Source: Bacteroidetes bacterium GWF2_43_63
GTDB taxonomy: Bacteria > Bacteroidota > Bacteroidia > Bacteroidales > DTU049
Assembly (NCBI GenBank): GCA_001769275.1
Contig: MEOQ01000045.1
Span: forward strand, 129,821-193,820
Length of the DNA stretch: 64,000 nucleotides
Direction: 5' to 3'
Both the position numbers and the translations under genes were made by a program. The notes beneath the pieces are model-generated. The model was not told where the DNA came from, did not search any database, and saw only the letters and a program-made list of their open reading frames with translations. How positions within the stretch are numbered: position 1 is the stretch's first letter; each line of letters begins with the position of its first letter. Positions 23,422-63,262 of this stretch are shown piece by piece.

Positions 23422-23517
23422 CTACTGACTTTTTAGAAGCCAGGGAAGTCTGTTTGGCGGAATGACGTAACTATTCGATGTTCCCGAGCTGGGTTTAGTC
23501 TTTTGTTTAATACTGCT

Positions 23518-23689
23518 GAGGCTGTCTTGGAACAAGCAGTTTCTACAAAAATAATATTCCATCGTCGTAAAGCGACGCAGGAGCGAAAGGATATGGAATC
23601 GTTGTTTTTGTAGCTGTTACGACGATTCCATATCCGCCAGCAGGCGGACGATGGAATATCGTAACGTTTTTTAATTTTGAGACAACCTC
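23518..23689. repeat. Hairpin-rich TIR-bounded element, copy B (inverted relative to 41251-41469)
   Basis: 23551-23689 aligns with the reverse complement of 41262-41445 apart from a swapped central module (ccgccagcaggcgg here). Ends are gaggctgtctt.../...ttttgagacaacctc. Confidence 0.8.
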
Positions 23690-23784
23690 AATAAATATAT
23701 TTACAATATACTATGCCCGAGCTGGTTGAAAGGCTTTACAGGAGCGTAATTCGGCGTGAATGCGTTTATTATTTGAGTGCAATG

Positions 23785-26880: not shown

Positions 26881-27066
26881 GAATACTGAATATGCAATGG
26901 AACATCGAACACTGAATAAGGAATGTTGAAGTAAACATCGAATCATGAACACTGAACAAGGAATGACGAAGTAAAGGCAGAAATATTTGAAGCGCCTTTC
27001 TACTTTATAAACTTTAAGAACTTTGGATTACTTCGTCATTAAACCTTCCTTGTTCCTTGTTCATTA
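26881..27066. repeat. Direct plus inverted repeats of the TTCATGATTCA/CCTTGTTCC word family
   Basis: catcgaacactgaataaggaatgttgaagtaaa (26904-) and catgaacactgaacaaggaatgacgaagtaaa (26945-) are direct copies. ttacttcgtcattaaaccttccttgttccttgttcat (27028-27064) is the inverted partner. Confidence 0.75.
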
Positions 27067-27068
27067 TT

Positions 27069-28385
27069 CTACAGCCCGCCCTCACCGCGGTAAAGCGACA
27101 ATTTGCCATCAAGAGTAACTTTAAGTACGGTCATGTATTTGTCCTGCACTCCTTCTGGGACATCAATGTAAACAATACCCGGAACCTTGCTCCAGGAGAT
27201 CTTTCCAACCACTTTGAAATCTGCGGGAGTGTTGGATCCAACCACTTCAATTTTTTTAATATCGTTGTTCAACCCTTTCAGAATCACATTTCCACTTTGA
27301 TTTCCCTGCAGGAACAAATACAGGGCAGTCGAGTCTTTTGAAATGGTGGTTGGTCCATAAAAATGTCCGAGCGGCATTCCTGCAACTGATTCGAAAACCG
27401 CTTCGCTGTGTTTGGCATTCCATTGACCGAGTTCCTGCATAATAAACAGCTGTTCTTCAGGAATGGTTCCATCGGCTTTCGGGCCAATGTCGAGTAATAG
27501 ATTGCCCCCAAAACTTATGCAATCGGCAAAAATACTTATGATTTCATAAGGCGTTTTATAGGCTGAATCTGTGATGTAATAGCCCCATGAATCATTCATG
27601 GTCATACACAATTCCCAGTTTTCCTTTTGTGGACGGACTACCGGAAAATGCTGTTCGGGCGTGGCATAATCGCCAAATCCCTGCAGACGGCCATTGATGA
27701 TTGCATTCGGATTATTTTTCAAAATTCTTTCACGAATACCGGCCGCATCCCATTCTTCGGCACTGTGTTCCCAATCGCCGTCAAACCAGACCAGGTCGGG
27801 ATTGTATTGCTCAAGAATTTCACTCAACTGGCCGTTGTTGAACTTAATGAATTTTTTCCATCGCTTTGGATCTGCACTGATTTCGTAACGACCCGAATCG
27901 CGCAGGAATCCGGGGTAATCTTCATGTGTCCAGTCAATCAGAGAATAATATAAGCCAAGTTTTAAGTCGGTTTTTCTTACTTCGTTCACAAACGGTGTAA
28001 GCACATCGCGCTTCGCCGGGGAACTTTTTTTTGTACTCAGGTCGTTGAATTTTGTGTCCCAGAGCGATACTCCGTCATGATGTTTCGAAGTAATAACTAT
28101 GTATCTGGCTCCGGTTTTTTCGATCAGCGATACCCATCCGGCCGGATCGTATTTCTCTGCCGTGAATTCACTAATCTGAGCCATATAATCCTTGTGACTC
28201 ATATGCCCGTTGTGAAACTCCCAGGACTCGCTGCCACGACCAGTGGAATAAATTCCCCAATGAATAAAAATGCCAAGTTTGGCATCGGAAAACCATTGCA
28301 TTCTTGCTGAATGGCTTGTGTCGGTCTGCGCAATGGCTTGAGTCGCCAGCAGAAACAGCAGGGAAATATTAAGCAGATATTTCAT
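27069..28385 (-). CDS. GH29 alpha-L-fucosidase
   Basis: Signal peptide, ..W..AK.GIFIHWG.YS.., ..KHHDG..LWD.., ..LVWFDG.W.. and a C-terminal beta-sandwich. Confidence 0.85.
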   Translation of the reverse strand: MKYLLNISLLFLLATQAIAQTDTSHSARMQWFSDAKLGIFIHWGIYSTGRGSESWEFHNGHMSHKDYMAQISEFTAEKYDPAGWVSLIEKTGARYIVITSKHHDGVSLWDTKFNDLSTKKSSPAKRDVLTPFVNEVRKTDLKLGLYYSLIDWTHEDYPGFLRDSGRYEISADPKRWKKFIKFNNGQLSEILEQYNPDLVWFDGDWEHSAEEWDAAGIRERILKNNPNAIINGRLQGFGDYATPEQHFPVVRPQKENWELCMTMNDSWGYYITDSAYKTPYEIISIFADCISFGGNLLLDIGPKADGTIPEEQLFIMQELGQWNAKHSEAVFESVAGMPLGHFYGPTTISKDSTALYLFLQGNQSGNVILKGLNNDIKKIEVVGSNTPADFKVVGKISWSKVPGIVYIDVPEGVQDKYMTVLKVTLDGKLSLYRGEGGL

Positions 28386-28494: not shown

Positions 28495-29307
28495 CTATTC
28501 AAGCGTATAATCAAAATCAATATCAGGAATTATATTGTGGCAAAAGACGAAATTTTCGAAATCCGAAAACCATTGAATGACAGTATTTGAATCAACAAAA
28601 TAATTTTCGTTATTAATTATTTCATTATAGGAAGAATAAATCCACTCTTCCGGTCGTTGGAAAAAACCATGATAAACGGGGTTGTTGTGAATATACACAA
28701 CAAGCGTTCGCAAGTAATCATCGGACAACACTTCTTTTCGCTGAAAGGGATGAATAAACAATCCGCCCATTCGTTTGTTTTGCTTATTGAACGCCTGCGT
28801 ATAACTCGAAAACAAGTCGCCGAGCTGGCGGCTGATCCATATTTGAAGAAACGCTTCTACTTCCGATGCCGAGCCGTTTGAGCTTTTGAGGTCTTTTAAA
28901 GCTTCGAGTTTTCTAGAAGTCTTTTTATAGGCATTGAAGCGGGAGCTTGGGGATGTTTTTGCTGCGCTAAAGAAAGGTGGCAACTCCTCTTTCGCCATAA
29001 ACTTCAACGAAGTTTCAAACTTCGTTGAAGTTGGCGAAGAAGTTTCAAACTTCGTTGAAGTTGGCGAAGTTGAAGTTGGTTTAAGCATCTCTTCCAGCGC
29101 AGCAACAATCTCTTCGCAGCTTTTTACCCGAACCAGAAAATGAAAGTGGTTCGGCATCAGGCAATATGCGTAGGTGTCGAAAAACGCTGATAAATGAAAT
29201 TTGTATTTCTCGAGGAAAAACGAGAAATTTTCACCTTTGCGAAAAATATTTTCAAACCCGTTTGCATGATTATAAATATGGTAATATTTCCCGGATTCCA
29301 GATACAT
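28495..29307 (-). CDS. REP-associated tyrosine (Y1, HUH) transposase-like protein (RAYT / IS200-like) with an enlarged central insert
   Basis: HUH context ..YAYCLMPNHFHFLVRV.. and the Tyr-region motif ..VVYIHNNPVYHGF.. At 270 aa it appears longer than I would expect for this family, because of a low-complexity insert containing a 30-bp tandem duplication. Confidence 0.75.
   Translation of the reverse strand: MYLESGKYYHIYNHANGFENIFRKGENFSFFLEKYKFHLSAFFDTYAYCLMPNHFHFLVRVKSCEEIVAALEEMLKPTSTSPTSTKFETSSPTSTKFETSLKFMAKEELPPFFSAAKTSPSSRFNAYKKTSRKLEALKDLKSSNGSASEVEAFLQIWISRQLGDLFSSYTQAFNKQNKRMGGLFIHPFQRKEVLSDDYLRTLVVYIHNNPVYHGFFQRPEEWIYSSYNEIINNENYFVDSNTVIQWFSDFENFVFCHNIIPDIDFDYTLE
29010..29069. repeat. 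Perfect 30-bp tandem duplication containing a palindrome, inside the RAYT coding sequence
   Basis: aagtttcaaacttcgttgaagttggcgaag x2 (29010-29039 and 29040-29069). cttcaacgaagttt-c-aaacttcgttgaag (29002-29030) is a perfect 14-bp hairpin. The duplication is in frame and encodes SPTSTKFETS twice. Confidence 0.9.
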
Positions 29308-38908: not shown

Positions 38909-41161
38909 CTAGATCAAGCGGTAATCAGTGTCGGCCGCCTGGCTTTTGGTTCTGATATCGAGTTCTGTCAATTCATTTACAAAGCGCGTGATATTCTGAA
39001 TTTCGGTGGTGATGTTGAAAAACAGCAGACTTGAGCGTGATGCATTTTCTTTGCGTTTCACCCGCTCGATCTGAGAACGCCGGACAATTTTGATTTTATC
39101 GCAAACGACATTGGCTATCTGATGCAGATCGTCGGCCAGGCCACGACCCGAATCTTCCATCACAATTTTCTTTGAGAAGTCGCATAACTGCTGCAGATCT
39201 TCGGACAAAGACTCGAAATCGCGCATTTGATTTTTGCCGAGATTTTTATGCTGATTATTGATGTGATTATACACAGGGTGCGTCAAATAACCAAGACTGA
39301 CTGAGATTTCACGGAGGATTTCAGCGTTTTTGAGATAGTATTCGCCATAGAGCACGTAATTGTCTCCCAGTGCTGAAATTGAGCTGTTGACGGTTGAGCT
39401 GAACAATTCTGTCCGCTTATTAATGTCTTTCACAATTTCATCAGCTTCTTTCAGCTTTTTCAGTTTTTCTTCTTCAAGGCCTTCACGGATTAAAGTGACG
39501 ACTTCAGGAATTTTCTCTATTACATACGAAACATTGGTTCTGCATAAGTCGAGAATTTCGCTTTCGCCGGTATTCTCATCAATGCGTAACATGTTTTCTT
39601 TTTCCTGATAATCCTTTTCGCGACGACGGTGAATAACTTTGCTGCGGACAAGAAAGAATATGGCAAATACGGACAGAAGAACGACTGAAACAATGCTGCC
39701 CAGATAGAGCACATAGGCAAGCAGTGCGGCAGAAAGGAAGGCCAGAAATGCTGTAATGAACCAACCGCCAATTACAGTGGTAACTCCGGAAACGCGATAC
39801 ACAGCGCTGTCGCGGTCCCAGGCGCGGTCAGCCAGTGATGTTCCCATGGCCACCATGAAAGTAACATAGGTTGTTGAAAGCGGGAGTTTGAGCGATGTTC
39901 CGAATGCAATGAGACTTGATCCGACGGTGAGATTTATTGCAGCGCGTACCATGTCAAATGCCGGTGCATCGGGACTGTTGCTCATTGGAGGAGCAGCAAA
40001 CCGTTTTTCGATCCAGCGATGGACAGCAGGAATGCGTACCAGTGTAAAGAAATTTCCGATTGAAACAGCCAGTTTTACAAGCGAACGAGCTACCGGATTG
40101 GTGTCGAAATTTTCAACACCTTCGTTCTGACGCGACAATCCAACCTCGGTGCGGATAACGGTTCGGGTTTTTTTATTGAGCCACAAAGTCAGCAACATGA
40201 TTAATCCAGCCCCCATCAGAAATCCAACCGGAACCTTGGCCGGAGTACTTAATGTCTCCATTGTCATTGTTGGATCTCCGGTTACAGAATAGGCCTGGTA
40301 GGCATCGAGACCAGCCAGTGATGGTCCGAGAAAGTTTACGAGGTCATTACCAGCAAATGCCATGGCGATTGCAAAAGTTCCATAAATCACAATGACCCGA
40401 AAAACATTTACTCTGAAAAGCAATTGCAACATCAACAGAATTACAGCGGCCCCTGCCATTACTGAAGTAAGCATCAATGCAAGGTGCTGGGCCACATATT
40501 CTTTCATGTCCTTATCGATGAAAGTGGCCGATTTCATTCCTTTGAAAAATATAAAATATGAAATAAGGGCGATTGCAATGCCACCGAAAATGGCTCCGCC
40601 GATTTTATATCTTGAGAAGTTGAAACTGAAAACAGTTCGCGCAATTTTTTGAATAAGCAATCCGAAAAAGAAAGCGATGGCAATGGATACAAAAATAGCA
40701 ATGATCATTGCAAAAGCTTTTTCTGTATTCATGTACATATCGAGATCGCCAATTGCCTGCCCATTTTCAACAAGTTTTGCCACTGAAAAAGTAAAGGAAG
40801 CACCCAGCAACGCCGCAACCAGAGAAACGGTTGTCGATGTTGGCAGTCCAAGCGTATTGAAGAAATCAATCAGCAGCACATCGTTGAGCATTACGGCCAG
40901 ATAAATCATAATGACTTCTTCGAACATAAAATATTGCGGATGAAACACCCCTGATCGCGCCACGTCCATCATGCCGCCGGCAAACAAGGCGCCAACAAAA
41001 ACACCCAGCGAAGCTATCACGAGCAACCACTTGAAAGTGAGACTACGGGAGCCGTACCCGGAGTTGAGAAAGTTTACTGCATCGTTGGCCACACCGACGG
41101 TGAGATCCATTATTGAGAGCAGAAAAAGTACGACCAATACACCTATAAAATAATATTCCAT
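38909..41161 (-). CDS. PiT-family phosphate transporter fused to a ~250 aa C-terminal cytoplasmic helical (PhoU-like, tentative) domain
   Basis: N-terminal ..GVANDAVNFLNS.. and a second-half ..FAGNDLVNFLG.. PiT signature pair. After the last TM (..FFLVRSKVIHRRRE) comes a long charged helical region. Confidence 0.8.
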   Translation of the reverse strand: MEYYFIGVLVVLFLLSIMDLTVGVANDAVNFLNSGYGSRSLTFKWLLVIASLGVFVGALFAGGMMDVARSGVFHPQYFMFEEVIMIYLAVMLNDVLLIDFFNTLGLPTSTTVSLVAALLGASFTFSVAKLVENGQAIGDLDMYMNTEKAFAMIIAIFVSIAIAFFFGLLIQKIARTVFSFNFSRYKIGGAIFGGIAIALISYFIFFKGMKSATFIDKDMKEYVAQHLALMLTSVMAGAAVILLMLQLLFRVNVFRVIVIYGTFAIAMAFAGNDLVNFLGPSLAGLDAYQAYSVTGDPTMTMETLSTPAKVPVGFLMGAGLIMLLTLWLNKKTRTVIRTEVGLSRQNEGVENFDTNPVARSLVKLAVSIGNFFTLVRIPAVHRWIEKRFAAPPMSNSPDAPAFDMVRAAINLTVGSSLIAFGTSLKLPLSTTYVTFMVAMGTSLADRAWDRDSAVYRVSGVTTVIGGWFITAFLAFLSAALLAYVLYLGSIVSVVLLSVFAIFFLVRSKVIHRRREKDYQEKENMLRIDENTGESEILDLCRTNVSYVIEKIPEVVTLIREGLEEEKLKKLKEADEIVKDINKRTELFSSTVNSSISALGDNYVLYGEYYLKNAEILREISVSLGYLTHPVYNHINNQHKNLGKNQMRDFESLSEDLQQLCDFSKKIVMEDSGRGLADDLHQIANVVCDKIKIVRRSQIERVKRKENASRSSLLFFNITTEIQNITRFVNELTELDIRTKSQAADTDYRLI

Positions 41162-41250
41162 TGTACGGAGTTTTTAATGATGCAAAAATAAAGGTACAAA
41201 AACAACTCTACATTAGCGCTATGTTAAGAAATTATTAGGTGGGATAGTAA

Positions 41251-41469
41251 GAGGATGTCTCAAAATTGAAAATCGTTACGATATTCCATCGTTCCGGCCG
41301 GTTCGAAATCCCTCGAAGGGTTCTGAACCCTTCGAGGGATAATATTCGGCCGGAATATGGAATCGTCGTAACAGCTTCAAAAACAACGATTCCATACCCT
41401 TTCGCTCCTACGTCGCTTTCGGACGATGGAATATTATTTTTGAAGAAGGCGATATTTTGAGACATCCTC
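41251..41469. repeat. Hairpin-rich element with perfect 16-bp terminal inverted repeats, copy A
   Basis: gaggatgtctcaaaat (41251-41266) pairs with attttgagacatcctc (41454-41469). Nested hairpins include ccctcgaaggg/cccttcgaggg, ccggccg/cggccgg, tatggaatcgt/acgattccata and acgatattccatcgt/acgatggaatat. Confidence 0.9.
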
Positions 41470-41551
41470 GTTGTTGCAGCAACAAAAAATGGGTTTAGCT
41501 TTTACACTAAACCCAATAGAGATTATTTAAACAGAAACAATGAACTCAGAC

Positions 41552-42376
41552 TTACATTCCTCTCAGGTTTTCTTTGCGGACGCTGTCTTTCTGCTCGTTG
41601 GTTTGTTTGAAATTGTATTTGAGCACTGCACTTTCCCAATCACCATACATTGGGTTTGGAAGAACGATAAAACGCTTTCCGAATTCCGATTTGTTTTCGT
41701 CGGTAACGGTAAAGCGATCATCAACCGTTTTGTTTTCAAAAATACCGCTAAAATCATTCATATTGTCGCCAATCAGCAACACAATATTATGAGTTGCCGA
41801 TACTTTGTCGCGACGCTCGTTTTTGCTACTGGTCTTGTCGCGCAGCAACAAATGTTCATCATCGATCATAGGGAAACCAAGTGCCCGCATATTTTTTATG
41901 GTAGCATCCTTTTCGGCAATTTTTCGATTGCTGACATAAAACACATCGACGCCTTTTGAAACAGCGTATTTCATAAATTCAACTGCACCGGGAATGGCCG
42001 TGGCAGATGCTTTGTCGATCCATTCACCCCAACGTTCAGGGTAACCGAAGTTTCCGAGAATATTCGCAGCTTCGTAGGGGCTATTGTCTACCATGGTTTC
42101 GTCAATATCTACAACAACAGCAAGTTTTTTAGGGCCTTTATAACTTTCAAGTGTTTGATCGATCGAAATCCGTGCAGTATTGAATGCCTGATAGCACATA
42201 GCGCGCATTTCTGCTGAAGTCTGATACCAGAGTACCGCCATCAGCATGTAGTCGTAATCAAAATTGTTTACATAAACCGTGTCGTGAACAATCACCGTTT
42301 TTTCAACAATACGCTCAGTCTGACATGCAGTCAGGGTGAGTAAGCCAACTAAAACAACAACGAACAGATTTTTCAT
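41552..42376 (-). CDS. Class C acid phosphatase / 5'-nucleotidase, lipoprotein e(P4) family
   Basis: Lipobox ..LLTLTAC, HAD motif I ..VVVDIDETMVDNSPY.. and motif ..LLIGDNMNDF.. Confidence 0.85.
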   Translation of the reverse strand: MKNLFVVVLVGLLTLTACQTERIVEKTVIVHDTVYVNNFDYDYMLMAVLWYQTSAEMRAMCYQAFNTARISIDQTLESYKGPKKLAVVVDIDETMVDNSPYEAANILGNFGYPERWGEWIDKASATAIPGAVEFMKYAVSKGVDVFYVSNRKIAEKDATIKNMRALGFPMIDDEHLLLRDKTSSKNERRDKVSATHNIVLLIGDNMNDFSGIFENKTVDDRFTVTDENKSEFGKRFIVLPNPMYGDWESAVLKYNFKQTNEQKDSVRKENLRGM

Positions 42377-52359: not shown

Positions 52360-52500
52360 TAGACGCGGAATAACGCGGAAAATAGTATAAGCCCCAACGG
52401 ATAGACGCGGAGAGAGAGGTTTAGACGCGGATTAACGCGGAATATATTAAAACTGACGGATGGACGTGGAGAAAGAGGATTAGACGCGGAATATTTCAAA
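52360..52500. repeat. ~60-bp tandem repeat carrying five TAGACGCGGA decamers
   Basis: The decamer occurs at 52360, 52402, 52422, 52461 (variant tggacgtgga) and 52481, with spacing 42/20/39/20 bp. It starts 29 bp upstream of the purD start codon. Confidence 0.85.
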
Positions 52501-52920
52501 ACGCGTTTTGACGGATTCAAAGGTGCTTCATTTAAAACCACGTGGAACGTGGCAAGCTGTGACATGTCGCTCAATTTGTCCCTGGGGTGGAGTCTATCCC
52601 GCTGCCTCCTTCGATACACCGCAAGCAGATATCTCGCAAAGAGCTGCGAGAGCGGCACTCAGGATGACAGCGAGGGTGTGCCATTCAATTTTGGGTTGCG
52701 ATGCACGCATTGCTGGTGGTCTCTGGATGACAGCGGCGGGGCCAAGGGTTACCGATGTTGGACTGCAGAGTTTGCTCTACAAGAGGCGGAGGCGCATCTT
52801 ATGGAGCTCCGCAGCTTTTTAAATCCTTCGGATACTCGATCTCGTAACGTTTGTAACGTCTGTAACGTGTAACGAAAGTCTTACTAAACCTTAACCTGGG
52901 CGCGCGTCTCCCGACGCGTG
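52501..52920. repeat. Mosaic intergenic repeat composite
   Basis: Words present are ccacgtggaacgtggcaagctgtgac, cttcgatac, actcaggatgacagcg, a GTAACG array (ctcgtaacgtttgtaacgtctgtaacgtgtaacg, about 52840-52873) and ctgggcgcgcgtct (also at about 53724). Confidence 0.75.
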
Positions 52921-52923
52921 ACC

Positions 52924-53472
52924 CTATTCTCCCATGTTGAATTTGACGATCAGATGAAAGAAGAATGTTTCATTGTCGATGATGGTGAAAGCAAAATCGA
53001 GGGGCATGCCGGCTTTGCGGCGGATCTCGAGGATGCCAAGGCCATTGCTTCCGTTTGGACTCTCAGCGATAACAGGTTTTTCGGCATCAGCCTGACGTAC
53101 ATTTTCTTTCATGCTGCCACCGGCTTTGCGGTTGGCTTCGCGGATTCTTTTTTCAACAACCGTTCTGCGGGTGATACTTACGGCGTTTCCGCAATCAATT
53201 TTAAATCCCTGCCGGGTGCGTGTTGCCAGAAAAACAGCCGGATAAAGCGGGTATTCGTTATGCATATAAATATTCTGCAAAATCTCGCTGGCGGCAAGCA
53301 GAATCCGTTTTCTGATGCGGGTTTCCTGCTCTCCGAACAACCCTTCCATATTGTCAAGAATCCTGTCCGATTTCTTCTCAGAAATGGTGCCTTTGAATTG
53401 AGAAATCACATCGGCAGAATTGATGTTCTCCTTGATAAAATCGTCAATATTGAATTTCGATCCTGGTTTCAT
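52924..53472 (-). CDS. Small GHKL-like kinase, SiaB/DUF6272-like (tentative)
   Basis: 182 aa. ..ISQFKGTIS...RKRILLAASEILQNIYMHN.. and ..NGLGILEIRRKAG.. resemble the N-box and G-box of small anti-sigma-type Ser/Thr kinases. There is no partner gene nearby. Confidence 0.45.
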   Translation of the reverse strand: MKPGSKFNIDDFIKENINSADVISQFKGTISEKKSDRILDNMEGLFGEQETRIRKRILLAASEILQNIYMHNEYPLYPAVFLATRTRQGFKIDCGNAVSITRRTVVEKRIREANRKAGGSMKENVRQADAEKPVIAESPNGSNGLGILEIRRKAGMPLDFAFTIIDNETFFFHLIVKFNMGE

Positions 53473-53639
53473 GGGGGTTCAGTGAATTAATTTTTTCTGC
53501 AGATCATCAATGAACAATGTCATGTCTGCCCAAAGGTATAAAATAATTTTAATTATTATCGGTCATTTTTTTAACATGAATGGATAAAATTGGGAAAGCT
53601 GGGCAATCCTACAAAAACTTCTTTTTGAAATTCCCTGCA

Positions 53640-53979
53640 ACATTTCCACAACGCAGAGAGCTCGCTCCGCGAGGCACTCAGGTTGTGAAAATATTCAATG
53701 GGCGAGCCATCTCAAATTCAATCTGGGCGCGCGTCTTCTGCTTGTGTTTACGCCACCTTTACAACCGAGACACGCAGTCTTCTTGTCCATGTGGCTTTCA
53801 CGTGAAGCGTCCTGGAAGAGTCGGAGAGGGAATGCACAGTGCACAACGCCAACGCGCCGCCTGCCTTTGTCTCGCTTGTAACGTTGTAACGCTTGTAACG
53901 TGTAACGCTTGTAACGCGTAACGTCTGTAACGCCTGTAACGCCACGCTTCCAGCGTGATAAATTCCACGCTTGTAACGT
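53640..53979. repeat. Mosaic intergenic repeat composite ending in a nine-copy GTAACG array
   Basis: Third copy of the CCACAACGCAGAGAGC module (53646-53687). The 65-bp segment 53797-53861 is about 90% identical to 59223-59287. GTAACG occurs at 53878, 53886, 53895, 53902, 53911, 53918, 53927, 53936 and 53973. Confidence 0.85.
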
Positions 53980-55197
53980 CTATTTCTCCAATAAAAATTT
54001 CCGGATATGACAATGCTCAATGCCTTCAAAACTAGCACCCTCAAATGCATCCATGGTAATTACTTTTTTCGGATATTGATCTTTTATCTTCATAAGATTG
54101 CCAAATTCCCGCTCTACCGTTTTTTCTCCTTTCAAATTCAGCGCAACCTGTATATACATCTTTTCCTGATTCTTTTCGCACACAAAATCAATTTCACCTG
54201 TGCCAATGCTGCCCACTTTTACATCCCACCCCAAAAACAACAAATGGTTAAATGCGACATTTTCCAATATCTTTCCCAAATCCTGCGGGCGGTATCCAAT
54301 CACTGCATGGCGTAGGCCCGTGTTCTCAAAATAGTTTTTTCCACCTGTTTCGAAAATCCGCTTACCTACAATATCGTAGCGTTCAGCGTGATGTATAATA
54401 AAGGCATTGGCCAGATAGCTGATGAAAAGTTGTATCTGATTCGGCGCAATATTCACCTGCTGAGATTTTAAATAATCACTGATTTTTTTTGCCGAAAACA
54501 AGCTCCCAGTATTATCGGCCAGAAATTGTATCAGCTTTTCCAGCAACTTGTGACTACGTATATTGTATCGATTGATAACATCGCGATATACAATAGTGGC
54601 GTAAATACTTTTCAGATATTCCATCAATACTGCATTTTCCTGGGGAAGATGCATCAGATAGGGTAAACCGCCATAACGAAAATACCGATCCAGTGTTTTG
54701 TCAGAATCCTGAATCTGGTGAAAATGCAAAAACTCGGGATAGGACAAGCTGTAAATTTTTATCTCCACAAAACGGCCACTGAGCAAACTGGAGAGCTCGC
54801 CTGATAACAGCTCAGCATTGCTGCCCGTGCAGTAAATATCGCAGTTCCCTTTTAGCAAAAGGCTGCGCAAAGCTTTTTCAAATGCCGGTATTTCCTGTAT
54901 TTCATCAATGAAGATATAATTCATCCGATCACTTACTATATTTGATGCAATGTAATCGTGAAGGTCTTTTGCCGTCTGCAGGTGATCGAACAACAAATCC
55001 TCCTTGTTTATGTATATCACCGGCACATCATGCTCCAAACCGCGCAGATGCTGTATGATCTGAAAAAGGATGTAACTCTTCCCGACCCGGCGCTGCCCCG
55101 TGAAAACTTTAATCACGTTTTTTCCGATAAAAGGGATTATTCTTGACAGATATTCATGTCGCTTTTTTAATCCCGCAGGCAGAGTTGTTTTGTTCAT
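53980..55197 (-). CDS. AAA+ ATPase with C-terminal DUF4143 (COG1373-type)
   Basis: Walker A ..TGQRRVGKSY.., Walker B ..YIFIDEIQEIP.., ..TGSNAELLSGELSSLLSGRF.., and a C-terminal ..GEIDFV.. nuclease-fold-like motif. Confidence 0.85.
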   Translation of the reverse strand: MNKTTLPAGLKKRHEYLSRIIPFIGKNVIKVFTGQRRVGKSYILFQIIQHLRGLEHDVPVIYINKEDLLFDHLQTAKDLHDYIASNIVSDRMNYIFIDEIQEIPAFEKALRSLLLKGNCDIYCTGSNAELLSGELSSLLSGRFVEIKIYSLSYPEFLHFHQIQDSDKTLDRYFRYGGLPYLMHLPQENAVLMEYLKSIYATIVYRDVINRYNIRSHKLLEKLIQFLADNTGSLFSAKKISDYLKSQQVNIAPNQIQLFISYLANAFIIHHAERYDIVGKRIFETGGKNYFENTGLRHAVIGYRPQDLGKILENVAFNHLLFLGWDVKVGSIGTGEIDFVCEKNQEKMYIQVALNLKGEKTVEREFGNLMKIKDQYPKKVITMDAFEGASFEGIEHCHIRKFLLEK

Positions 55198-55299
55198 ATA
55201 TATAATTGTGTTTATAGTATCTATGCAAATATACGAAAGTTATAAACATGATTACAATAAATAGTAATAATGTGAAAACATTGGGGTCAAATAGTCAAG

Positions 55300-55570
55300 G
55301 GTTGCCTTTGCTCCGTCTTTGCGGCTATCGCGCATATCGGTGGCTGACGCGTAAATTGCACAGCGCGCAAAGCTCGGCGCATGCGGCATGCGGCAAGGCT
55401 TTGCATCGCTCCCACGCTTATTCCCGCTCTCGCTCTCACGCTCGCTCTGATTTATTCAACCTCTATGCGTCGCATAGCGACCTGTCACGATTGCTATCGT
55501 GAGCGTTGAAGAAGGACAAAGCACATCACCTCATCGCCAACGCGCCCCCTCGCCAACGCGCCGGGAAGGA
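55300..55570. repeat. Mosaic intergenic repeat composite
   Basis: gcgcacaaagctcggcgcatgcggcatgcggcaaggctttgcatcgctccc (compare 60905-60950), a CGCTCTCGCTC run, and the 42-bp segment 55471-55512, which is identical to 57384-57425. Confidence 0.85.
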
Positions 55571-55641
55571 CAGAGCAGTAGCAATATTGACCGCGCCATT
55601 GAATGAATAAGATTTATGTTGCATCATGGAAAAAAATTGAT

Positions 55642-55649
55642 TATCTTTG
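55642..55649 (+). promoter_or_regulatory. Candidate -7 box (TAtcTTTG) for the hipB-like/hipA operon
   Basis: tatctttg lies 61 nt upstream of the TTG start at 55710. Confidence 0.4.
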
Positions 55650-55709
55650 CTTGCTTAATAGATAAAATATTATCAATTAAACCGAAAAACCAAATTAAAG
55701 ACTAAAATA

Positions 55710-56030
55710 TTGGTCGAAATATCGGAAATATTAAACCGTAACAATCCAAACAGCATTGCCTTGGAACTGGCAAAGCGTGCGAAAAAATTGCGCTTAGCCG
55801 GCAATATGTCGCAGCAGATGCTGGCGGAAAAATCAGGTGTGAGCCTGGGCTCAGTGAAACGGTTTGAGCAACTTGGTCTGATTTCGTTACAGCATTTATT
55901 GCATATTGCTGTTGCGTTGAATGCGGCCGAAGATTTTATACAGTTATTTTCACAACCGCATTATGAAAGTATTGATGCTCTTGTGAAACTCAAAATGGCG
56001 GAAAACCGGAAACGTGTGCGAAGAAAATGA
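55710..56030 (+). CDS. XRE-family helix-turn-helix antitoxin (HipB-like)
   Basis: ..LRLAGNMSQQMLAEKSGVSLGSVKRFE.. HTH motif. There is a 4 bp ATGA overlap with hipA. The TTG start is inferred because no in-frame ATG lies upstream of the HTH. Confidence 0.75.
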   Translation: MVEISEILNRNNPNSIALELAKRAKKLRLAGNMSQQMLAEKSGVSLGSVKRFEQLGLISLQHLLHIAVALNAAEDFIQLFSQPHYESIDALVKLKMAENRKRVRRK

Positions 56031-57106
56031 AGATACCATCAACAGATATGATTACGGTGAAATGCGGCTCGCACATAGCTGGTCGAATGATATTGTCGCC
56101 GGAACGATTAATGGTTTTTGAGTACGACGCCAATTGGCTAAAGAATGGTTTTGCGCTTTCACCATTTTTTCTCCCGCTGAAGGCCGGCGCCATGACTGCC
56201 CGGCGAGAGCCATTCCATGGTAACTTCGGCGTTTTCGCCGACAGTCTTCCGGATGGATGGGGAAATCTTTTGTTGGATCGTGTATTGCGAAAATACGGAC
56301 TGGATCCGGCTTCGCTCACAACCATTCAGCGGCTTTCGCTTGTTGGAAATAACGGCATGGGTGCATTGACCTATGAACCCGCATTTGCAGTATCTGAACC
56401 GCAGGCATTGGAAGATCTCAACGAAATTGCTGCTGAAGTTGAGATGATAATGAATGACCAGGCATATATGGAATCTGTCGATGAGTTGTACCGTCAGGCA
56501 GGATCATCGGCGGGTGCCAGACCCAAGGTGCTGATTATGCACGAAGGTGAGCACTGGCTGGTGAAATTTGCATCCTCAATGGATCCGGACAATATTGGTG
56601 AAATAGAATTCGAATACTCGCAGCGCGCACGCAGAGCCGGAATTGAAATGCCTGAAACCCGGCTTTTTGAAGGAAAGTATTTTGGCGTGAAACGTTTCGA
56701 TCGTGAAGGAGAAGAGCGGATTCATATGATATCCGCTGCGGGATTGCTGCATGCCGATTTTCGGGTGCCATCGCTGGATTATACCGAGTTGATTAAAGCC
56801 ACCAGAGCGCTGACCGGGAGTGTTGTAGAGGTCGAGAAAATGTATCGGCTTATGGCTTTCAATGTCCTGATTGGGAATAACGATGATCACGCGCGCAACT
56901 TTTCTTTTATTTACAAAAAAGGTGAATGGAAATGCTCACCGGCATATGATTTACTTCCGTCGGTAGGAATGAATGGCGAACACTGCACAGCTGTTGCGGG
57001 TAGCGGACGTCCCGATGAAGGCGACATGCTGCGTGTTGCTGCTCAATGTAGCATTGAGAATGTGCGGGCCAAAGAGATTATTGCGGAAGTTGGAAGGTCT
57101 TTATAG
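56027..57106 (+). CDS. hipA: HipA-family Ser/Thr kinase toxin (type II TA)
   Basis: N-terminal coupling domain ..FADSLPDGWGNLLLDR.., ..GSSAGARPKVLI.. and catalytic ..IGNNDDHARNFSF.. Confidence 0.85.
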   Translation: MKIPSTDMITVKCGSHIAGRMILSPERLMVFEYDANWLKNGFALSPFFLPLKAGAMTARREPFHGNFGVFADSLPDGWGNLLLDRVLRKYGLDPASLTTIQRLSLVGNNGMGALTYEPAFAVSEPQALEDLNEIAAEVEMIMNDQAYMESVDELYRQAGSSAGARPKVLIMHEGEHWLVKFASSMDPDNIGEIEFEYSQRARRAGIEMPETRLFEGKYFGVKRFDREGEERIHMISAAGLLHADFRVPSLDYTELIKATRALTGSVVEVEKMYRLMAFNVLIGNNDDHARNFSFIYKKGEWKCSPAYDLLPSVGMNGEHCTAVAGSGRPDEGDMLRVAAQCSIENVRAKEIIAEVGRSL

Positions 57107-57615
57107 TGATGCATAGCGCTTCAGGCATGCGGCATAGAGCACGACGCATGCGGCATGAAGCACAACGCAAAGCGCACAAAGCTTAATGCTTAACGATTGC
57201 ACAAAACCCTAAGCCTTCAACTACATCCCGCTCCCGCTCTCATTCTCGCTCTGATTCCCGCTCTCGCTCAGATGATTCCCGCTCTCGCTCTCACGCTCGC
57301 TCTGATTTTTTCAGCCTCTCTGCGTCGCGCCTAGTCATCACGTGAAACCACGTAAAACGTGGCAAGCTGTGACAGGCTGTTTCACGCATAGCGACCTGTC
57401 ACGATTGCTATCGTGAGCGTTGAAGAGGCACAGCGCACAACGCATAGCTTAATGCTTAAGAGCTTAAAGATTAGACAAAACCTTAAACTTTCAACTTTAA
57501 GCTTTAAGCAATCGCCTCATCGCCCCCTCGCCTGTAACGTGTAACGCCTTCCGCTTCCAGCGGAATAAATTCCACGCCTGTAACGCCCGTAACGATTGTA
57601 ACGACCATATTTGTA
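57107..57615. repeat. Mosaic intergenic repeat composite (GCATGCGGCATG left, CGCTCTCGCTC middle, CACGTGAAAC, GTAACG array right)
   Basis: 57110-57195 is GCATGCGG-type and 57225-57310 is a CGCTCT run. 57384-57425 is identical to 55471-55512, and 57533-57576 is identical to 59326-59369. Confidence 0.9.
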
Positions 57616-57984
57616 ATTAAGCCAATAATATTTTTTATCTTTGCGATAAGTCTCGCAACGAAAATTTTCGCAATACATGGAAATGAATTCCTTTAGATTT
57701 GGAACCCATTGCTCCGAAACGAAAGGCATTCTTTAGTCTGACATAGGCGCAGCAGTCAATCTATGGTCCAACATTTTTGCATTTTCAGAGATTTTATGGT
57801 CTGAAAAAACAACATTTATTGATCATTATTGGTTTGGAAAAACGAAAATTGTAGCTGAATAAATTTGAAAAGAACACATTATCAGCATAATATACTCCAA
57901 GGTTGCCATGCGCAATAATTGGTACAACAATGTTAATAAGGTTGAAATATGGAAATTAAAATTCCAAAATGCAACCATAATTAT

Positions 57985-57992
57985 TATCTTTG
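57985..57992 (+). promoter_or_regulatory. Candidate -7 box (TAtcTTTG) for the AAA+/DUF4143 gene at 58029
   Basis: tatctttg lies 37 nt upstream of ATG 58029. Confidence 0.45.
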
Positions 57993-58028
57993 CAATGGAA
58001 ATTAGTGGTATCACCAGTCTATGAATCT

Positions 58029-59186
58029 ATGATAACACGTTTTTTATATTCTGAACTATCCTGGTCCATGCAAAAGTTCCCGGCTGTCTGCATCACGGGC
58101 CCACGACAATGTGGAAAGACAACGCTTGCAAAACAATTGTGTTCTGCCTCTGCCAAAGATTTCATCTATCTTGATCTTGAAAAGCATGAAGATTTGATGC
58201 GCATTAAAGATGCCGGCCTTTTTTTTCGTGATAACAGGGATAAACTGATTGTTCTGGACGAAATTCAACGAAAACCAGAGCTTTTCTCAGAAATCAGAGC
58301 CGAAATTGATGCCTTCAAACGCTCCGGCCGCTTTCTGATTCTTGGATCGGCCAGCCCCGATATTATTAAAAACACATCAGAAACACTTGCTGGCAGAATC
58401 CGATATATCCATTTGCATCCTTTCATTCTGAGTGAATTGAATGATCCTGTGTCGTGGAAGGACTTGATGTTCTGGGGCGGATTCCCCGATGTTGTACTCG
58501 ATAATGATGAGAGATTCAGGAAGGAATGGCTCGATAACTTTATTTATACCTATCTCGAACGCGATTTGCCTATGCTCGGTTTAAAAGCTGATCCTGTACA
58601 GATTCGCCGATTGTGGGAAATGCTTGCGTGGCAGGCCGGCAGCCTTCTCAATTCCTCAAATCTCGGCCGCTCTCTTGGCGTTTCAAACCATACTGTAAAT
58701 AATTATCTCGATTATCTCGAAGGGGCTTTCATGATTCACCGTATTGAACCATTCGATGCCAATATCGGGAAACGAATCGTTAAGTCTAAAAAGGTATTTA
58801 TTGCCGATACCGGACTTTTACACCGCCTGTTGCGTCTTAGTTCTTACGACCAGCTTATGGGCAATGCGATGGCAGGTCATTCCTGGGAAAACTTTGTATT
58901 CAATCAGCTGCAGCCACTATTGAAAAACGACTGGAATATCTGGTTTTACCGCACACATACTGGTGTTGAAACCGATCTTGTACTTGGAAAAGGAATGAAA
59001 CCCCTGGTGAGTATTGAAATAAAACTTTCATCGTCTCCTGGTATGACACGCGGCTTTGCAACAGCGATTGCAGATCTTGGAACTCTGAAGAATTTTATCA
59101 TTATCCCTGAAAGCGAAAAATTCAGAGTAAGGGAAGATGTTACTGTCTATGGCCTTCAACAGTTTATCGCCGAATTACCTTTGTAA
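58029..59186 (+). CDS. AAA+ ATPase with C-terminal DUF4143 (second, divergent paralog)
   Basis: Start moved to MITRFLYSEL.. Walker A ..TGPRQCGKTT.., Walker B ..LIVLDEIQRKP.., ..LGSASPDIIKNTSETLAGRI.., and C-terminal ..GVETDLVL.. Confidence 0.85.
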   Translation: MITRFLYSELSWSMQKFPAVCITGPRQCGKTTLAKQLCSASAKDFIYLDLEKHEDLMRIKDAGLFFRDNRDKLIVLDEIQRKPELFSEIRAEIDAFKRSGRFLILGSASPDIIKNTSETLAGRIRYIHLHPFILSELNDPVSWKDLMFWGGFPDVVLDNDERFRKEWLDNFIYTYLERDLPMLGLKADPVQIRRLWEMLAWQAGSLLNSSNLGRSLGVSNHTVNNYLDYLEGAFMIHRIEPFDANIGKRIVKSKKVFIADTGLLHRLLRLSSYDQLMGNAMAGHSWENFVFNQLQPLLKNDWNIWFYRTHTGVETDLVLGKGMKPLVSIEIKLSSSPGMTRGFATAIADLGTLKNFIIIPESEKFRVREDVTVYGLQQFIAELPL

Positions 59187-59440
59187 CGCCTTCCGACCTT
59201 CAAGAGTCGCGACTGTGTCACGTTTCACGTGAAGCGTCCTGGAAGAGTCGGAGAGAGAACGCACAGCGCCCAACGCCAACGCGCCGCCCACCTTGTCACT
59301 TTGTTACCTTGTCACTCTGTTACTCTGTAACGTGTAACGCCTTCCGCTTCCAGCGGAATAAATTCCACGATTGTAACGCCACGCTTTCAGCGTGATAAAC
59401 TCCACGCCTGTAACGCCTGCATCCGATCAAAACACATCTG
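59187..59440. repeat. Mosaic intergenic repeat composite ending in a GTAACG array
   Basis: 59223-59287 is about 90% identical to 53797-53861 and 59326-59369 is identical to 57533-57576. Hairpins present are ccgcttccagcgg and cacgctttcagcgtg. Confidence 0.9.
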
Positions 59441-59513
59441 CGTCCAGTATGCCGGCAGCAGTTGAAATATTTCGTTTTTATGCAATATATTTGCTGTAAT
59501 GAATAAAATAGAC

Positions 59514-59521
59514 TATATTTG
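59514..59521 (+). promoter_or_regulatory. Candidate -7 box (TAtaTTTG); a second copy lies at 59486-59493
   Basis: tatatttg lies 20 nt upstream of ATG 59541. The other copy lies 6 nt upstream of ATG 59499, so the true start is ambiguous. Confidence 0.4.
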
Positions 59522-59540
59522 TACAGTAAAGAACAATTTA

Positions 59541-60806
59541 ATGATTAAAAACATTATTATTCAGCAGCAGGAAGAAAAATTATTTTTGCTAAACCGGCCA
59601 TATATTGAACGTATTGAAGCCGGTGAAAAAACAAAATTATTAAAGACAAGTCTTATTAAAGTCATTGCAGGGCCCAGAAGAGCCGGAAAGTCGGTGATTG
59701 CTCTTCAGCTTTTGAAAGAGAAAAATTTTGCCTATCTGAATTTTGACGATGATTTGTTGTTGAAACACTTCGCCGAAGACAAGGTGCTGCAAGCATTGCA
59801 TCAGATATACCCGGGGTTTGAATATTTATTGCTCGATGAAATTCAAAATCTTGATGGCTGGGAATTATGGGTGAATAAATTGTATCGCCGTGGTATTAAT
59901 ATGATTATCACAGGTTCCAATGCCAGATTGCTTTCACATGAACTGGCCTCGGGTCTGACAGGCCGTTTCGTGCAGTTGACAGTTTTGCCATTTGGCTTTG
60001 CCGAAGTCATTAGGTTTAGCAACTTGTTGCCCGCAGAAAAGCCTCAGGCCACTCTGACAAAGAAAGCCAGATTGCTTGCAATGCTCGAAAATTATCTTTC
60101 CAATGGCGGCTTTCCTGAGACATTGTTGAATCAAGGGCTATTGGTAAATTATCTTTCATCCTTGTTTGATTCTATTTTATTAAAGGATATTCTGAATCGT
60201 TTTCATATTCGCCAAACCCGGCAGTTATACGATTTGTCGCACTACCTGCTGTCGAATTACACAAATTGTTTTACCTTTAACCAGTTGAAAGAATCGCTTG
60301 ATTTCAACAGCGTTGCAACCGTTCAGAAATTTACCGGTTATCTCGAAGAACCCTATCTTTTTCAGCATCTCACACGATACAATACCAAAATAAAAAGTCA
60401 GCAGAAAGCACCACAAAAAATATACATTGTCGATAATGGATTTGTAAAAGCCAGGTCGTTTGAATTGTCGCCCAATTACGGCCGCCTGCTTGAAAATCTT
60501 GTATTTGTCGAATTGTTGCGACGAAATTTTCTGCCCGAATTGTCATTGTTTTATTACCGTACCCGTAATGACCGTGAAGTTGATTTTTTGCTTCGGGAAG
60601 GAAATAAGACAGATCAGTTGATTCAGGTCTGCTATGCGATGGATCAACCCAAAACAATCAAACGGGAAATTAGTGCGCTTATTGAAGCAGCTGAGGAACT
60701 CAAATGCACAAAGCTTTTGATAATTACCTGGGACAAAGAGGAAGTGATAGAACAGAAAAATCTTCGTATTGTTGTTGTACCGGCCTATAAGTGGCTAATG
60801 GAATAG
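59541..60806 (+). CDS. AAA+ ATPase with C-terminal DUF4143 (third, divergent paralog)
   Basis: Walker A ..AGPRRAGKSV.., Walker B ..YLLLDEIQNLD.., ..TGSNARLLSHELASGLTGRF.., and C-terminal ..REVDFLL.. The alternative start at 59499 would add 14 aa. Confidence 0.8.
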   Translation: MIKNIIIQQQEEKLFLLNRPYIERIEAGEKTKLLKTSLIKVIAGPRRAGKSVIALQLLKEKNFAYLNFDDDLLLKHFAEDKVLQALHQIYPGFEYLLLDEIQNLDGWELWVNKLYRRGINMIITGSNARLLSHELASGLTGRFVQLTVLPFGFAEVIRFSNLLPAEKPQATLTKKARLLAMLENYLSNGGFPETLLNQGLLVNYLSSLFDSILLKDILNRFHIRQTRQLYDLSHYLLSNYTNCFTFNQLKESLDFNSVATVQKFTGYLEEPYLFQHLTRYNTKIKSQQKAPQKIYIVDNGFVKARSFELSPNYGRLLENLVFVELLRRNFLPELSLFYYRTRNDREVDFLLREGNKTDQLIQVCYAMDQPKTIKREISALIEAAEELKCTKLLIITWDKEEVIEQKNLRIVVVPAYKWLME

Positions 60807-61188
60807 AGCATAGGGCTTGCGGCATGCGGTCCCGCCTTCGTCGGGATAAACTCCGGGTATGCGGTGCACAACGTCACGCTTGCAGCGTGATAATCTCCAC
60901 GCACAGCGCACAAAGCTCGGCGCATGCGGCAAGGCTTTGCATCGCTCCCGCTCTCATTCTCGCTCTCTCTCTCGCTCTGATTCCCGCTCTCGCTCAGATG
61001 ATTCTCGCTCTCGCTCTCACGCTCGCTCTGATTTATTCAACCTCTCTGCGTCGTGAAGCGACCTGAGTGCGTTGAAGAAGAACAAAGCACATCGCCTCCA
61101 CGCCACATCGCATCATCGCCACATCGCCACCTCGCTCCCACGCCACCTCGCCAAAAAAAAATATACATGGCTCATTCAGAACTGACAA
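60807..61188. repeat. Mosaic intergenic repeat composite
   Basis: gcttgcggcatgcgg at the left edge, 60905-60950 matching 55364-55412, a CGCTCT run (60945-61035), and a CATCGCCAC/CCTCGC run (61090-61152). Confidence 0.85.
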
Positions 61189-61293
61189 CCAATAACCATT
61201 AACCAATAACCATTAACCATTAACCAATAACCAATAACCAATAACCAATAACCATTAACCATTAACCATTAACCATTAACCATTAACCAATAA
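61189..61293. repeat. 15-unit heptanucleotide array of two variants (CCAATAA / CCATTAA)
   Basis: The units are exactly contiguous in the order A T A T T A A A A T T T T T A (A=ccaataa, T=ccattaa). The array is flanked on both sides by actgac and ends 23 bp before a TAtaTTTG box. Confidence 0.95.
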
Positions 61294-61315
61294 CTGACCA
61301 CTGGCAGCTAATTCT

Positions 61316-61323
61316 TATATTTG
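61316..61323 (+). promoter_or_regulatory. Candidate -7 box (TAtaTTTG) almost abutting ATG 61328
   Basis: tatatttg ends 4 nt before the annotated ATG. This implies either a leaderless transcript or use of a downstream Met. Confidence 0.4.
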
Positions 61324-61327
61324 CAAA

Positions 61328-62686: not shown

Positions 62687-62689
62687 ACA

Positions 62690-63262
62690 CTTTATGTGAA
62701 AATGTGCGACTGCGTCGATGTGCGGCTTCGCCGTATGTGTGAATATAAGCAACATAAAAACTGGCCATTGGCTACTGAATACTGGCTACTAGTAAGAAGG
62801 TGTGAAAATGTGGGGCTCACGTAAAACAGCTTGTCACGTTTCACGTGATGACACGTTCGCCCATGCGGCGCGGAGTTTATCCAGCTGGAAGCGGGGCGCA
62901 TGTGAGAATTTTAGATTCTGCAAATGATGTGAAAATGTGAGGCTCACGTAAAACAGCTTGTCACAGCTTGCCACGTTTCACGTGGTTTCACGTGATGACA
63001 TGTTCGCCTATGTGAGAATTAGAGATACCTTAAAAGCTATGAGTTATGGGTTATAAGTTATGAGTGTAGCGTTGTAACGTCTGTAACGACACAGCCCCTT
63101 CTTTAACCTCTCTGCGTCGCACAGCGACCTGAGTGCGTTAAAGAAGCCCATTACTTCTCAGCTTCTGCTCAGAGCTGATCGCTGATTATCCCGAGTCCTG
63201 CGGACGGGACTTCGCTGACAGCTGATGACTGAGATGTAACGATTGTAACGTGTAACGAAAGG
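62690..63262. repeat. Mosaic intergenic repeat composite with a long direct repeat rich in CACGTG and two GTAACG clusters
   Basis: gtgaaaatgtg[ga]ggctcacgtaaaacagcttgtcac..gtttcacgtgatgaca[ct]gttcgcc occurs at about 62802-62870 and about 62929-63012. GTAACG clusters lie at 63070-63093 and 63236-63258. Confidence 0.85.

Follow-up and report, generated by a model that had tools for sequence, protein, structure and literature searches.

What kind of sequence is a 219-bp palindromic segment that lies between two phosphate-related genes of a Bacteroidales bacterium, and how is it spread? We addressed this question in a 64,000-nucleotide stretch of the genome of Bacteroidetes bacterium GWF2_43_63 (contig MEOQ01000045.1, positions 129,821 to 193,820), referred to throughout as the window and numbered from its first letter. 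The segment (copy A) had been singled out from the sequence alone, together with a second, inverted copy (copy B), and was thought to be a miniature inverted-repeat transposable element (MITE), a structured RNA or terminator module, or a recombination site. Herein, we describe a family of such elements and argue, at a probability of roughly 60%, that they are non-autonomous palindromic repeats of the REPIN type, that is, inverted repetitive extragenic palindromic (REP) sequences for which a REP-associated tyrosine transposase (RAYT) acts in trans as the copying enzyme, and that they contain a conserved two-hairpin core in addition. The host lineage of this REP/RAYT system is uncultured Bacteroidales.

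A repeat family built on two hairpin modules

The 16-bp complementarity between the ends of copy A is perfect, and the inner pairings first read from it are all present: ATATTCCATCGT with ACGATGGAATAT, TATGGAATCGTCGT with ACAACGATTCCATA, and CCGGCCGG with CGGCCGG, the last enclosing a 16+16 palindrome at 41308-41340. The predicted RNA fold of copy A has an energy of -105 kcal/mol on the plus strand and -110 kcal/mol on the minus strand (z = -12; 0 of 200 shuffles as good), and the predicted single-stranded DNA fold one of -64 kcal/mol (z = -11). What had been described as four nested hairpins is, family-wide, a terminal stem closing two side-by-side hairpin modules, an arrangement with which RNAalifold agrees independently. 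The long-range pairings of copy A arise from the inversion of module II relative to module I. By our convention, the element is oriented as terminal repeat, hairpin module I, hairpin module II, terminal repeat. Its coding capacity is limited, as first noted, to shadow open reading frames (ORFs), two in number and without a Pfam match. Copy B is real and its core is 93-94% identical to that of copy A; a short CCGCC..GGCGG hairpin stands in place of copy A's 47-nt CCGGCC hairpin, and the 47-nt length difference shifts the reading frames crossing that stretch. Unrelated GC-rich hairpins occupy the same distal position of module I in other copies.

Two long hairpins that adjoin each other and have opposite polarity make up the core of the family; invariant ATTCCAT/ATGGAAT boxes are the basis of both modules. 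The consensus of module I is stem a, T-ATTCCAT-CGT, a variable GC-rich distal hairpin, AT-ATGGAAT-CG and stem a', while that of module II is stem b, CG-ATTCCAT-AT, a conserved loop (CC..CTCCTnCGTCGC..GG), ACG-ATGGAAT-AT and stem b'. Each module has an invariant 7-bp ATTCCAT:ATGGAAT helix with asymmetric unpaired bases at its sides, closed by a covarying stem. Over the box region, modules I and II are reverse complements of each other; they are inverted units that form a hairpin, and box1:box4 and box2:box3 are perfect 12-bp complements. Since the modules are mutually inverted, the element is alike on both strands. Modules are found singly or in threes as well as in pairs; thus, the hairpin module is the basic unit.

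Pairing was counted on an alignment of 108 distinct copies (A3), and the counts of covariation include inherited changes. Paired states made up 89.6% of the cells, compared with 33-47% when the partners were slid, and 0 of 500 shuffles reached the observed level of covariation. Compensatory double changes numbered 36-39 at four pairs of stem a and 35-39 at two pairs of stem b, and double changes were present at all 16 pairs of the terminal-repeat stem. The terminal stem plus the two hairpins were also returned by RNAalifold when it was run unguided on 30 copies. Between the two subfamilies the boxes are kept and the stems are altered in a compensatory manner: stem a/a' is GTTACGA/TCGTAAC in subfamily 1 and GCAAAACCGA/TCGGTTTTGC in subfamily 2, with GTCACAA/TTGTGAC among other variants, and stem b/b' is CAAAAACAA/TTGTTTTTG in subfamily 1 and GCAAACATAA/TTATGTTTGC in subfamily 2. 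In clade 1b all four boxes changed together, essentially in one evolutionary event, by which box1:box4 and box2:box3 were kept and the box1:box2 pairs were broken. The terminal repeat has the consensus GAGG(A/C)TGTCTC, also written GAGG(A/C)TGTCTCAAAA, and both ends are recognisable in 42 of the 59 distinct subfamily 1 copies listed.

A profile search with nhmmer recovered about 165 copies in 0.87 Mb of DNA from Bacteroidales metagenome-assembled genomes (MAGs) and bioreactor metagenomes, frequently two or three per 5-10 kb. The exact two-box pattern matched 24 loci of the genome collection in four species-level Bacteroidales MAGs, a count that includes one chance match in an Oscillospiraceae contig (L072), rejected as a family member; a related pattern matched more than 114 metagenome loci, chiefly those of anaerobic digesters and bioreactors. 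Almost without exception the copies lie between genes, and all orientations to the adjoining ORFs occur (32/22/18/13 in the four orientation classes, from simple ORF calls). When 682 neighbouring ORFs were clustered, they fell into ordinary housekeeping families and no recurring protein partner was found among them. The genes between paired copies were all ordinary except for one IS4/IS5-like insertion sequence (IS) with unrelated ends. Blastn gave no match to the element in plasmid and phage collections; in viral contigs one pattern had 0 matches, and a 15-mer had 62 scattered single matches that we judged to be chance. No part of the window matched Rfam at the gathering score, a relaxed search returned only sub-threshold chance matches, and at 12 other loci no Rfam match fell on the element. 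A search of the searchable literature for the element's sequence strings returned only unrelated primer matches. The census that the original prediction had proposed turned up copies far above two, with covariation present and no match in Rfam or the literature, and nothing that it had named as speaking against itself.

The presence of the element varies between relatives. At the site of copy A, in the PFOR-phosphatase-PHO4 locus, relatives with an 85-88% identical phosphatase have gaps of 135-193 bp and no element, and the alignment picks up directly past it; a 92% relative has a variant copy there. At the site of copy B, the element is found in the 92% relative, which carries it at both window sites (L215, L216), and in none of the 85-88% relatives. 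One 88% relative, MAG DAOPKE01, has family copies at other loci. A filled site (L111) compared with two empty ones (L107 and L113) differs by a 437-bp composite insertion. Orthologous copies differ in distal hairpin or module number, and some non-orthologous copies are 96-99% identical. Among 48 copies there was neither a target-site duplication, junction repeat lengths being equal to those of a permuted control, nor a conserved flanking base or target motif; for copies A and B, the empty sites of the 85-88% relatives are too diverged for base-exact junctions. The lack of a target-site duplication is as the chemistry of HUH/RAYT enzymes would predict.

Some of the compared sites have features of their own. 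In L111 (4560-5130, against L107:8980-9110), an imperfect 34-bp direct duplication of the target encloses a long-form element and a 137-nt GC-rich palindromic segment. At the site of copy B, the 85-88% relatives (L218/L217:4078-4524, L219:1873-2322) have a spacer of ~450 bp with other repeats, including TTTGCCAC.A..GCACA.AGACACTAAATATT, which occurs twice. The window was rejected as an empty site for L077, L071 or L143, where synteny stops before the element or the spacer is unrelated.

REP arms, the RAYT gene and a proposed mechanism

Of the 49 distinct full copies, 13 (27%) have GTAG-containing outer REP arms (GTTGGGCGTAGTCT / AGACTACGCCCAAC) at a distance of 16-18 nt beyond the terminal repeats. 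The arms are present on both sides in 10 copies, always inverted, with 0 in the wrong orientation. A stricter arm motif gave 7 matches in left flanks and 9 in right flanks, where 0.19 would be expected per flank. Copy B is counted among the arm-bearing copies, and its arms are degenerate. Copy A has a REP-like hairpin 20 nt from one side and TGGGATAGTAA abutting the other; the regular spacing is absent, and TGGGATAGTAA, read by eye, fails the scan for the motif GGGNNTAGT.

Among the RAYT subclasses known in Bacteroidetes are ones whose REPs carry GT[AG]G, have a 'double foot' or are atypical (Quentin et al. 2018, PMC6006769), and REPs form head-to-head dimers with two alternative folds (PMC3733652). 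Following these two papers, we scanned all collected DNA for HUH...Y motifs. The scan found two RAYT ORFs of 180 and 182 aa (L078 and L165, respectively), which score 103 and 99 bits on NCBIfam NF047646 (cut-off 80) and both match Pfam Y1_Tnp. The RAYT gene of L078 has clusters of the REPs described above on both sides, each composite unit running from an outer arm through ~16 nt, the inner hairpin TGGGTTTAGTCT-NN-AGACTAAACCCA and again ~16 nt to a second outer arm. Its orthologues (99%, 77% and 72% identical) are likewise flanked by REPs, at a syntenic site beside a DEAD-box helicase gene. RAYTs are known by this combination of vertical descent, a syntenic site and flanking REPs. The arrangement of a REPtron is seen here for the outer and inner REP arms only, the two-hairpin core lying 0.5-1.6 kb from the RAYT gene.

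The link between these REPs and the element comes from the outer arms. Beyond an outer arm and its spacer comes, at one and the same distance, the inner REP arm in 27 distinct cases and the element's terminal repeat in 17, and one sequence, GGGTTGTCTC in L076, is intermediate between the two. Thus, the terminal repeat stands in for a REP arm, and the element may be viewed as an inner REP hairpin that has the two-module core in its loop.

The proposed process is as follows. A single-copy, vertically inherited REP-associated tyrosine (HUH/Y1) transposase would recognise folded REP arms on single-stranded DNA. It would cut and rejoin these arms without target-site duplications, and would thereby occasionally copy the whole unit into further intergenic sites. 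We propose that the compensatory changes are due to selection for single-strand folding. We infer that the RAYT moves the whole element, and copies without outer arms presumably moved likewise or decayed.

Two other RAYT-like genes were considered. The RAYT of L165 was rejected as the partner, having a different cognate REP, and its closeness to a copy is probably incidental. At that locus (L165:899-2203) the cognate REP, TGGCGCGGATTTGCAATCCGTGACA, occurs in five copies around the 182-aa RAYT gene. The 3' end of a neighbouring gene is present as a 159-bp direct duplication, its copies 98% identical and placed on either side of the whole unit. The window itself has a divergent RAYT-like ORF of 270 aa (28495-29307, minus strand), which scores 55 bits in two pieces against the cut-off of 80 and has the HUH motif NHFH and the Y motif YIHNNP. 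Its in-frame insertion is a duplicated palindrome (29000-29062), an inverted repeat of AACTTCAACGAAGTTTCAAACTTC; the ORF resembles the REP-inside-RAYT genes known from subclass 2.4. A tblastn search with an IS200 probe gave no match.

Several observations weigh against this interpretation. Some 73% of full copies, copy A included, are without correctly spaced outer REP arms, and the terminal repeat itself is without GT[AG]G. Subfamily 2 copies have no 16-bp terminal repeat and are embedded in a different, larger conserved repeat (for example L082:1200-1500, L203 and L178; upstream ..CTTCGACTCCGCTGCTAATGACACATTTGCTTATACCACTAAAAATCAAACAAATAA, downstream CCCCATTGTCATTTTTTATTTAGGTTGCAAAACGCGTTTTGCTGGTGGTCTCAGGATGACAGCGG). 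No RAYT gene directly flanked by the two-hairpin core was found, no RAYT orthologue of the window's own genome was seen, and a scan of the window found no GGGCGTAGTCT REPs around the RAYT-like ORF. Much of the covariation stems from a few subfamily splits, that is, from few independent events. The census is biased, as the collection pattern requires an intact box3 and box4, and mobility appears probable from sequence comparison between species. Finally, conservation is higher in the boxes and in the module II loop than in the REP-like ends, for which the knowledge of RAYT recognition gives no explanation.

Alternative explanations

The greater conservation of the boxes and the module II loop keeps alive a rival in which a separate module is nested in REPINs. 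There is a minor chance that the ATTCCAT/ATGGAAT hairpin modules and the module II loop are a separate cargo that was captured in a REPIN loop and is now spread by the RAYT. Such a cargo could consist of recognition sites of a second protein, or of a structured nucleic acid with two alternative conformations. If true, it would represent a REPIN carrying conserved cargo or, equivalently, a second hairpin-specific mobile system parasitising REPINs.

It is somewhat more doubtful that the core with its 16-bp repeats is an independent mobile module, which prefers the centres of REP doublets or other intergenic palindromes and is moved by an enzyme recognising ATTCCAT/ATGGAAT-box hairpins, the RAYT moving only the host REPINs. 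The absence of outer arms from most copies and the far greater conservation of the boxes than of the REP-like ends are consistent with such a module, as are the single, paired or triple modules, which differ at orthologous sites (L077 vs L103, L084/L088, L185, L085), and the joint change of both boxes of one module in some copies, as protein recognition sites would change. However, the spacer between arm and terminal repeat equals in length that between arm and inner REP arm, and the terminal repeat resembles the inner arm, which points to homology of position rather than insertion. Moreover, no candidate enzyme gene recurs beside the copies, and neither target-site duplication nor target motif accompanies them.

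The three remaining explanations are each less likely. Exaptation by the host is improbable; in this case the element would be a cruciform or protein site serving as a domain boundary, a replication or recombination signal, or a site for gyrase or a nucleoid protein, as in bacterial interspersed mosaic elements (BIMEs). Such a role would suit the alternating orientation of the four invariant boxes, the existence of two pairing sets that exclude each other (a:a' + b:b' vs box1:box4 + box2:box3) and resemble a four-way junction, and the retention of copies at the same sites in the 92% relative. Nevertheless, presence varies among close species at otherwise conserved loci, copies decay into partial forms, and they are not tied to particular gene classes.

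More improbable still is a structured RNA family, either of small RNA genes or of cis-acting stabiliser, processing or terminator modules co-transcribed with neighbours. The extremely stable predicted folds and the compensatory stem changes agree with it, as do the conserved module II loop, where a small CGTC/GACG stem has 26 G.T and 7 A.C mismatches, and a T-run after subfamily 2 copies. In the main stems, by contrast, the G.T and A.C counts (55/34, 11/9, 7/6, 12/18 and 8/10) have no strand bias; the element is alike on both strands and is oriented at random to the genes beside it, a conserved promoter was not seen, and Rfam gave no match at gathering or relaxed thresholds. A structured RNA or terminator module, as had been suggested, has no specific support in these data. 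Nor is the idea that copy A is probably transcribed established: a terminator-like hairpin with a T-run (41515-41490) separates it from the upstream gene. This hairpin, outside the element, is the sole terminator-like site of the gene strand in our scan; there is no intrinsic terminator within copy A and no T-run after either of its ends.

A classical MITE, a deletion derivative of a DDE-type IS mobilised via the 16-bp terminal repeats, has the poorest prospects, although the element has terminal inverted repeats and is small, non-coding, multicopy and intergenic. The 48 copies have no target-site duplication, left and right repeats covary within copies, subfamily 2 is entirely without terminal repeats, and the sole DDE IS found has unrelated ends and merely interrupts copies. 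Across 0.87 Mb the terminal repeat had 118 matches, of which 111 fall in element copies; the remaining seven (away from nhmmer copies, some at contig ends) were not seen to bound a transposase gene. In the roughly 1 Mb of DNA collected, no autonomous IS sharing the element's ends turned up. Of the original label 'MITE-like non-autonomous element', the non-autonomous repeat therefore stands, with many copies, covariation and variable presence, and the classical MITE does not, as there is no target-site duplication and no parent IS was seen in the collected DNA. The DDE IS (L195:305-1938; DDE_Tnp_1, 499 aa, ends TTTCCTGACTTCATAC) is IS4/IS5-like and lies between a subfamily 1 copy and a subfamily 2 copy.

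Genomic setting and relation to known systems

The features of both copies and their surroundings are collected in Table 1.

Table 1. Coordinates of the two element copies, their parts and the adjoining features in the window
Feature	Position	Strand	Remarks
Element copy A	41251-41469	+	219 bp; nhmmer 204 bits, RNAalifold
Left terminal inverted repeat, copy A	41251-41266	+	GAGGATGTCTCAAAAT
Module I, copy A	41275-41372	+	stem a + box1 + box2; RNAalifold-supported
Stem a, copy A	41275-41281 with 41366-41372		GTTACGA pairs with TCGTAAC
Box1, copy A	41281-41292		ATATTCCATCGT
Variable distal hairpin of module I, copy A	41293-41354	+	CCGGCCGG..CGGCCGG around palindrome
Box2, copy A	41355-41366		ATATGGAATCGT
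Module II, copy A	41378-41442	+	stem b + box3 + loop + box4; RNAalifold-supported
Stem b, copy A	41378-41386 with 41434-41442		CAAAAACAA pairs with TTATTTTTG
Box3, copy A	41386-41397		ACGATTCCATAC
Conserved loop of module II, copy A			CCTTTCGCTCCTACGTCGCTTTCGG
Box4, copy A	41423-41434		ACGATGGAATAT
Right terminal inverted repeat, copy A	41454-41469	+	ATTTTGAGACATCCTC
REP-arm-like sequence	41240-41250	+	TGGGATAGTAA; abuts left end of copy A; read by eye
REP-like hairpin, then T-run	41490-41515	-	TGGGTTTAGTGTAAAAGCTAAACCCA; 20 nt from copy A; resembles terminator of phosphatase gene
PHO4-family phosphate transporter	38909-41161	-	750 aa; flanks copy A
Class B acid phosphatase / e(P4) 5'-nucleotidase	41552-42376	-	Acid_phosphat_B; flanks copy A
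Element copy B	23518-23689	-	172 bp, long-form copy; nhmmer 164 bits
Outer REP arm	23491-23501	+	GGGTTTAGTCT; 16 nt outside copy B
Degenerate outer REP arm	23708-23718	-	GGGCATAGTAT; 18 nt outside the other end of copy B

As originally described, a 390-bp gap (41162-41551) separates the minus-strand Acid_phosphat_B and PHO4 genes. Within it, copy A sits between an upstream terminator and a downstream promoter region; it has no demonstrated role for the neighbouring phosphate genes, and nothing suggests a regulatory one. The 85-88% identical relatives have different terminator hairpins at the position of 41490-41515. A candidate 'fifth box' spanning the PHO4 start codon (41147-41167, AAAATAATATTCCATTGTACG) is complementary at 19 of 21 positions to 41420-41440 of the element. 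It was rejected as part of the element because L214, without the element, has the same coding sequence; it is thus native, and the match is probably a coincidence.

The intergenic spacers of the window hold other repeats. Arrays of short TGTAACG-type units, another intergenic repeat family, lie in long spacers (14852-14895, 52835-52878, 53868-53952, 59293-59352, 63065-63088 and 63235-63261). A GC-rich palindromic repeat of ~50 nt (..GCACTCAGGT..GCGACGCAGAGAGG..) occurs six times, at 47147, 47274, 53646, 55452, 61033 and 63099; the same repeat adjoins the element in the composite insertion of L111 (4900-5035). The motif GGGATAAACTCCG / CGGAGTTTATCC is found in spacers at 14725-14750, 60839-60864 and 62871-62895 and, as GGAGTTTATCCCGCC, is inserted within module II of some copies (L074, L108, L197, L200). 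There are also tandem 7-nt units (AACCAAT/AACCATT) at 61166-61319, and three tandem 54-nt units at 12540-12701 with a related copy at 27017-27070. The region 52500-62700, with three AAA_14/DUF4143 ATPase genes, a HipA-like toxin gene, a DUF6272 gene and repeat-rich spacers of 300-900 bp, looks like a variable island.

Among the known systems closest to the element are the REPINs and BIMEs of E. coli and Pseudomonas, whose RAYT is TnpA_REP. Like the element, these are non-coding intergenic palindromic repeats in many copies, in which two inverted units fold as separate hairpins or as one long hairpin (PMC3733652); they too lack target-site duplications and preserve their hairpins by compensatory changes, and GT[AG]G arms also flank a single-copy syntenic RAYT gene (PMC3733652, PMC6006769). 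Unlike them, the element is much larger (170-250 bp, or ~270 bp including the outer arms), has three nested layers (outer REP arms, REP-like terminal repeat and two box hairpins), and is without GTAG arms in most copies. Its invariant ATTCCAT/ATGGAAT boxes and conserved 21-nt loop have no counterpart in described REPs. The 'double foot' and atypical REPs of RAYT subclasses 2.4 and 2.6 in Bacteroidetes and Cyanobacteria (PMC6006769) share with it the phylum, the outer two-footed palindrome GTAG...CTAC and a RAYT some 180 aa long that bears NH[IL]H and YIHENP motifs. The in-frame palindromic insertion in the RAYT-like ORF of the window is a hallmark of subclass 2.4. However, that paper has short hairpins beside the gene and no two-module core.

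MITEs with structured transcripts (Correia/NEMIS, ERIC, RUP) and BOX elements resemble the element in having terminal inverted repeats, a length of ~100-250 bp, an intergenic location, strong folding and modular variants differing in the number of internal units, but they duplicate target sites (TA for Correia) or have identifiable IS parents, neither of which is seen for the element. Palindrome-associated transposable elements (PATEs) and the ends of IS200/IS605 resemble the element in having imperfect hairpins with conserved unpaired bases, which serve as substrates of Y1 HUH enzymes (putatively so in the element), and in making no target-site duplication. IS200/IS605 elements, in contrast, have no terminal inverted repeats, carry their hairpins on the same strand and are inserted 3' of a fixed tetra- or pentanucleotide, whereas the element has terminal repeats, mutually inverted modules and no target motif.

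REP/RAYT systems are well studied in Proteobacteria and barely characterised in Bacteroidota, where the published survey notes only 'atypical' structures. Three independent short-read assemblies of one strain break 64 nt into the element. In practice, repeats of this family break metagenome assemblies of abundant anaerobic-digester Bacteroidales, and they can be mistaken for riboswitch-like RNAs or MITEs. On the preferred reading, a RAYT-copied REPIN with an extra core, the element belongs to a new and unusually complex family within an established type of genomic repeat, and is not a gene regulator. The family would be a three-layer REPIN, in which the innermost box hairpins are more conserved than the REP arms, and it would offer a concrete substrate for studying RAYT recognition in Bacteroidota and whether REPINs can carry extra modules.

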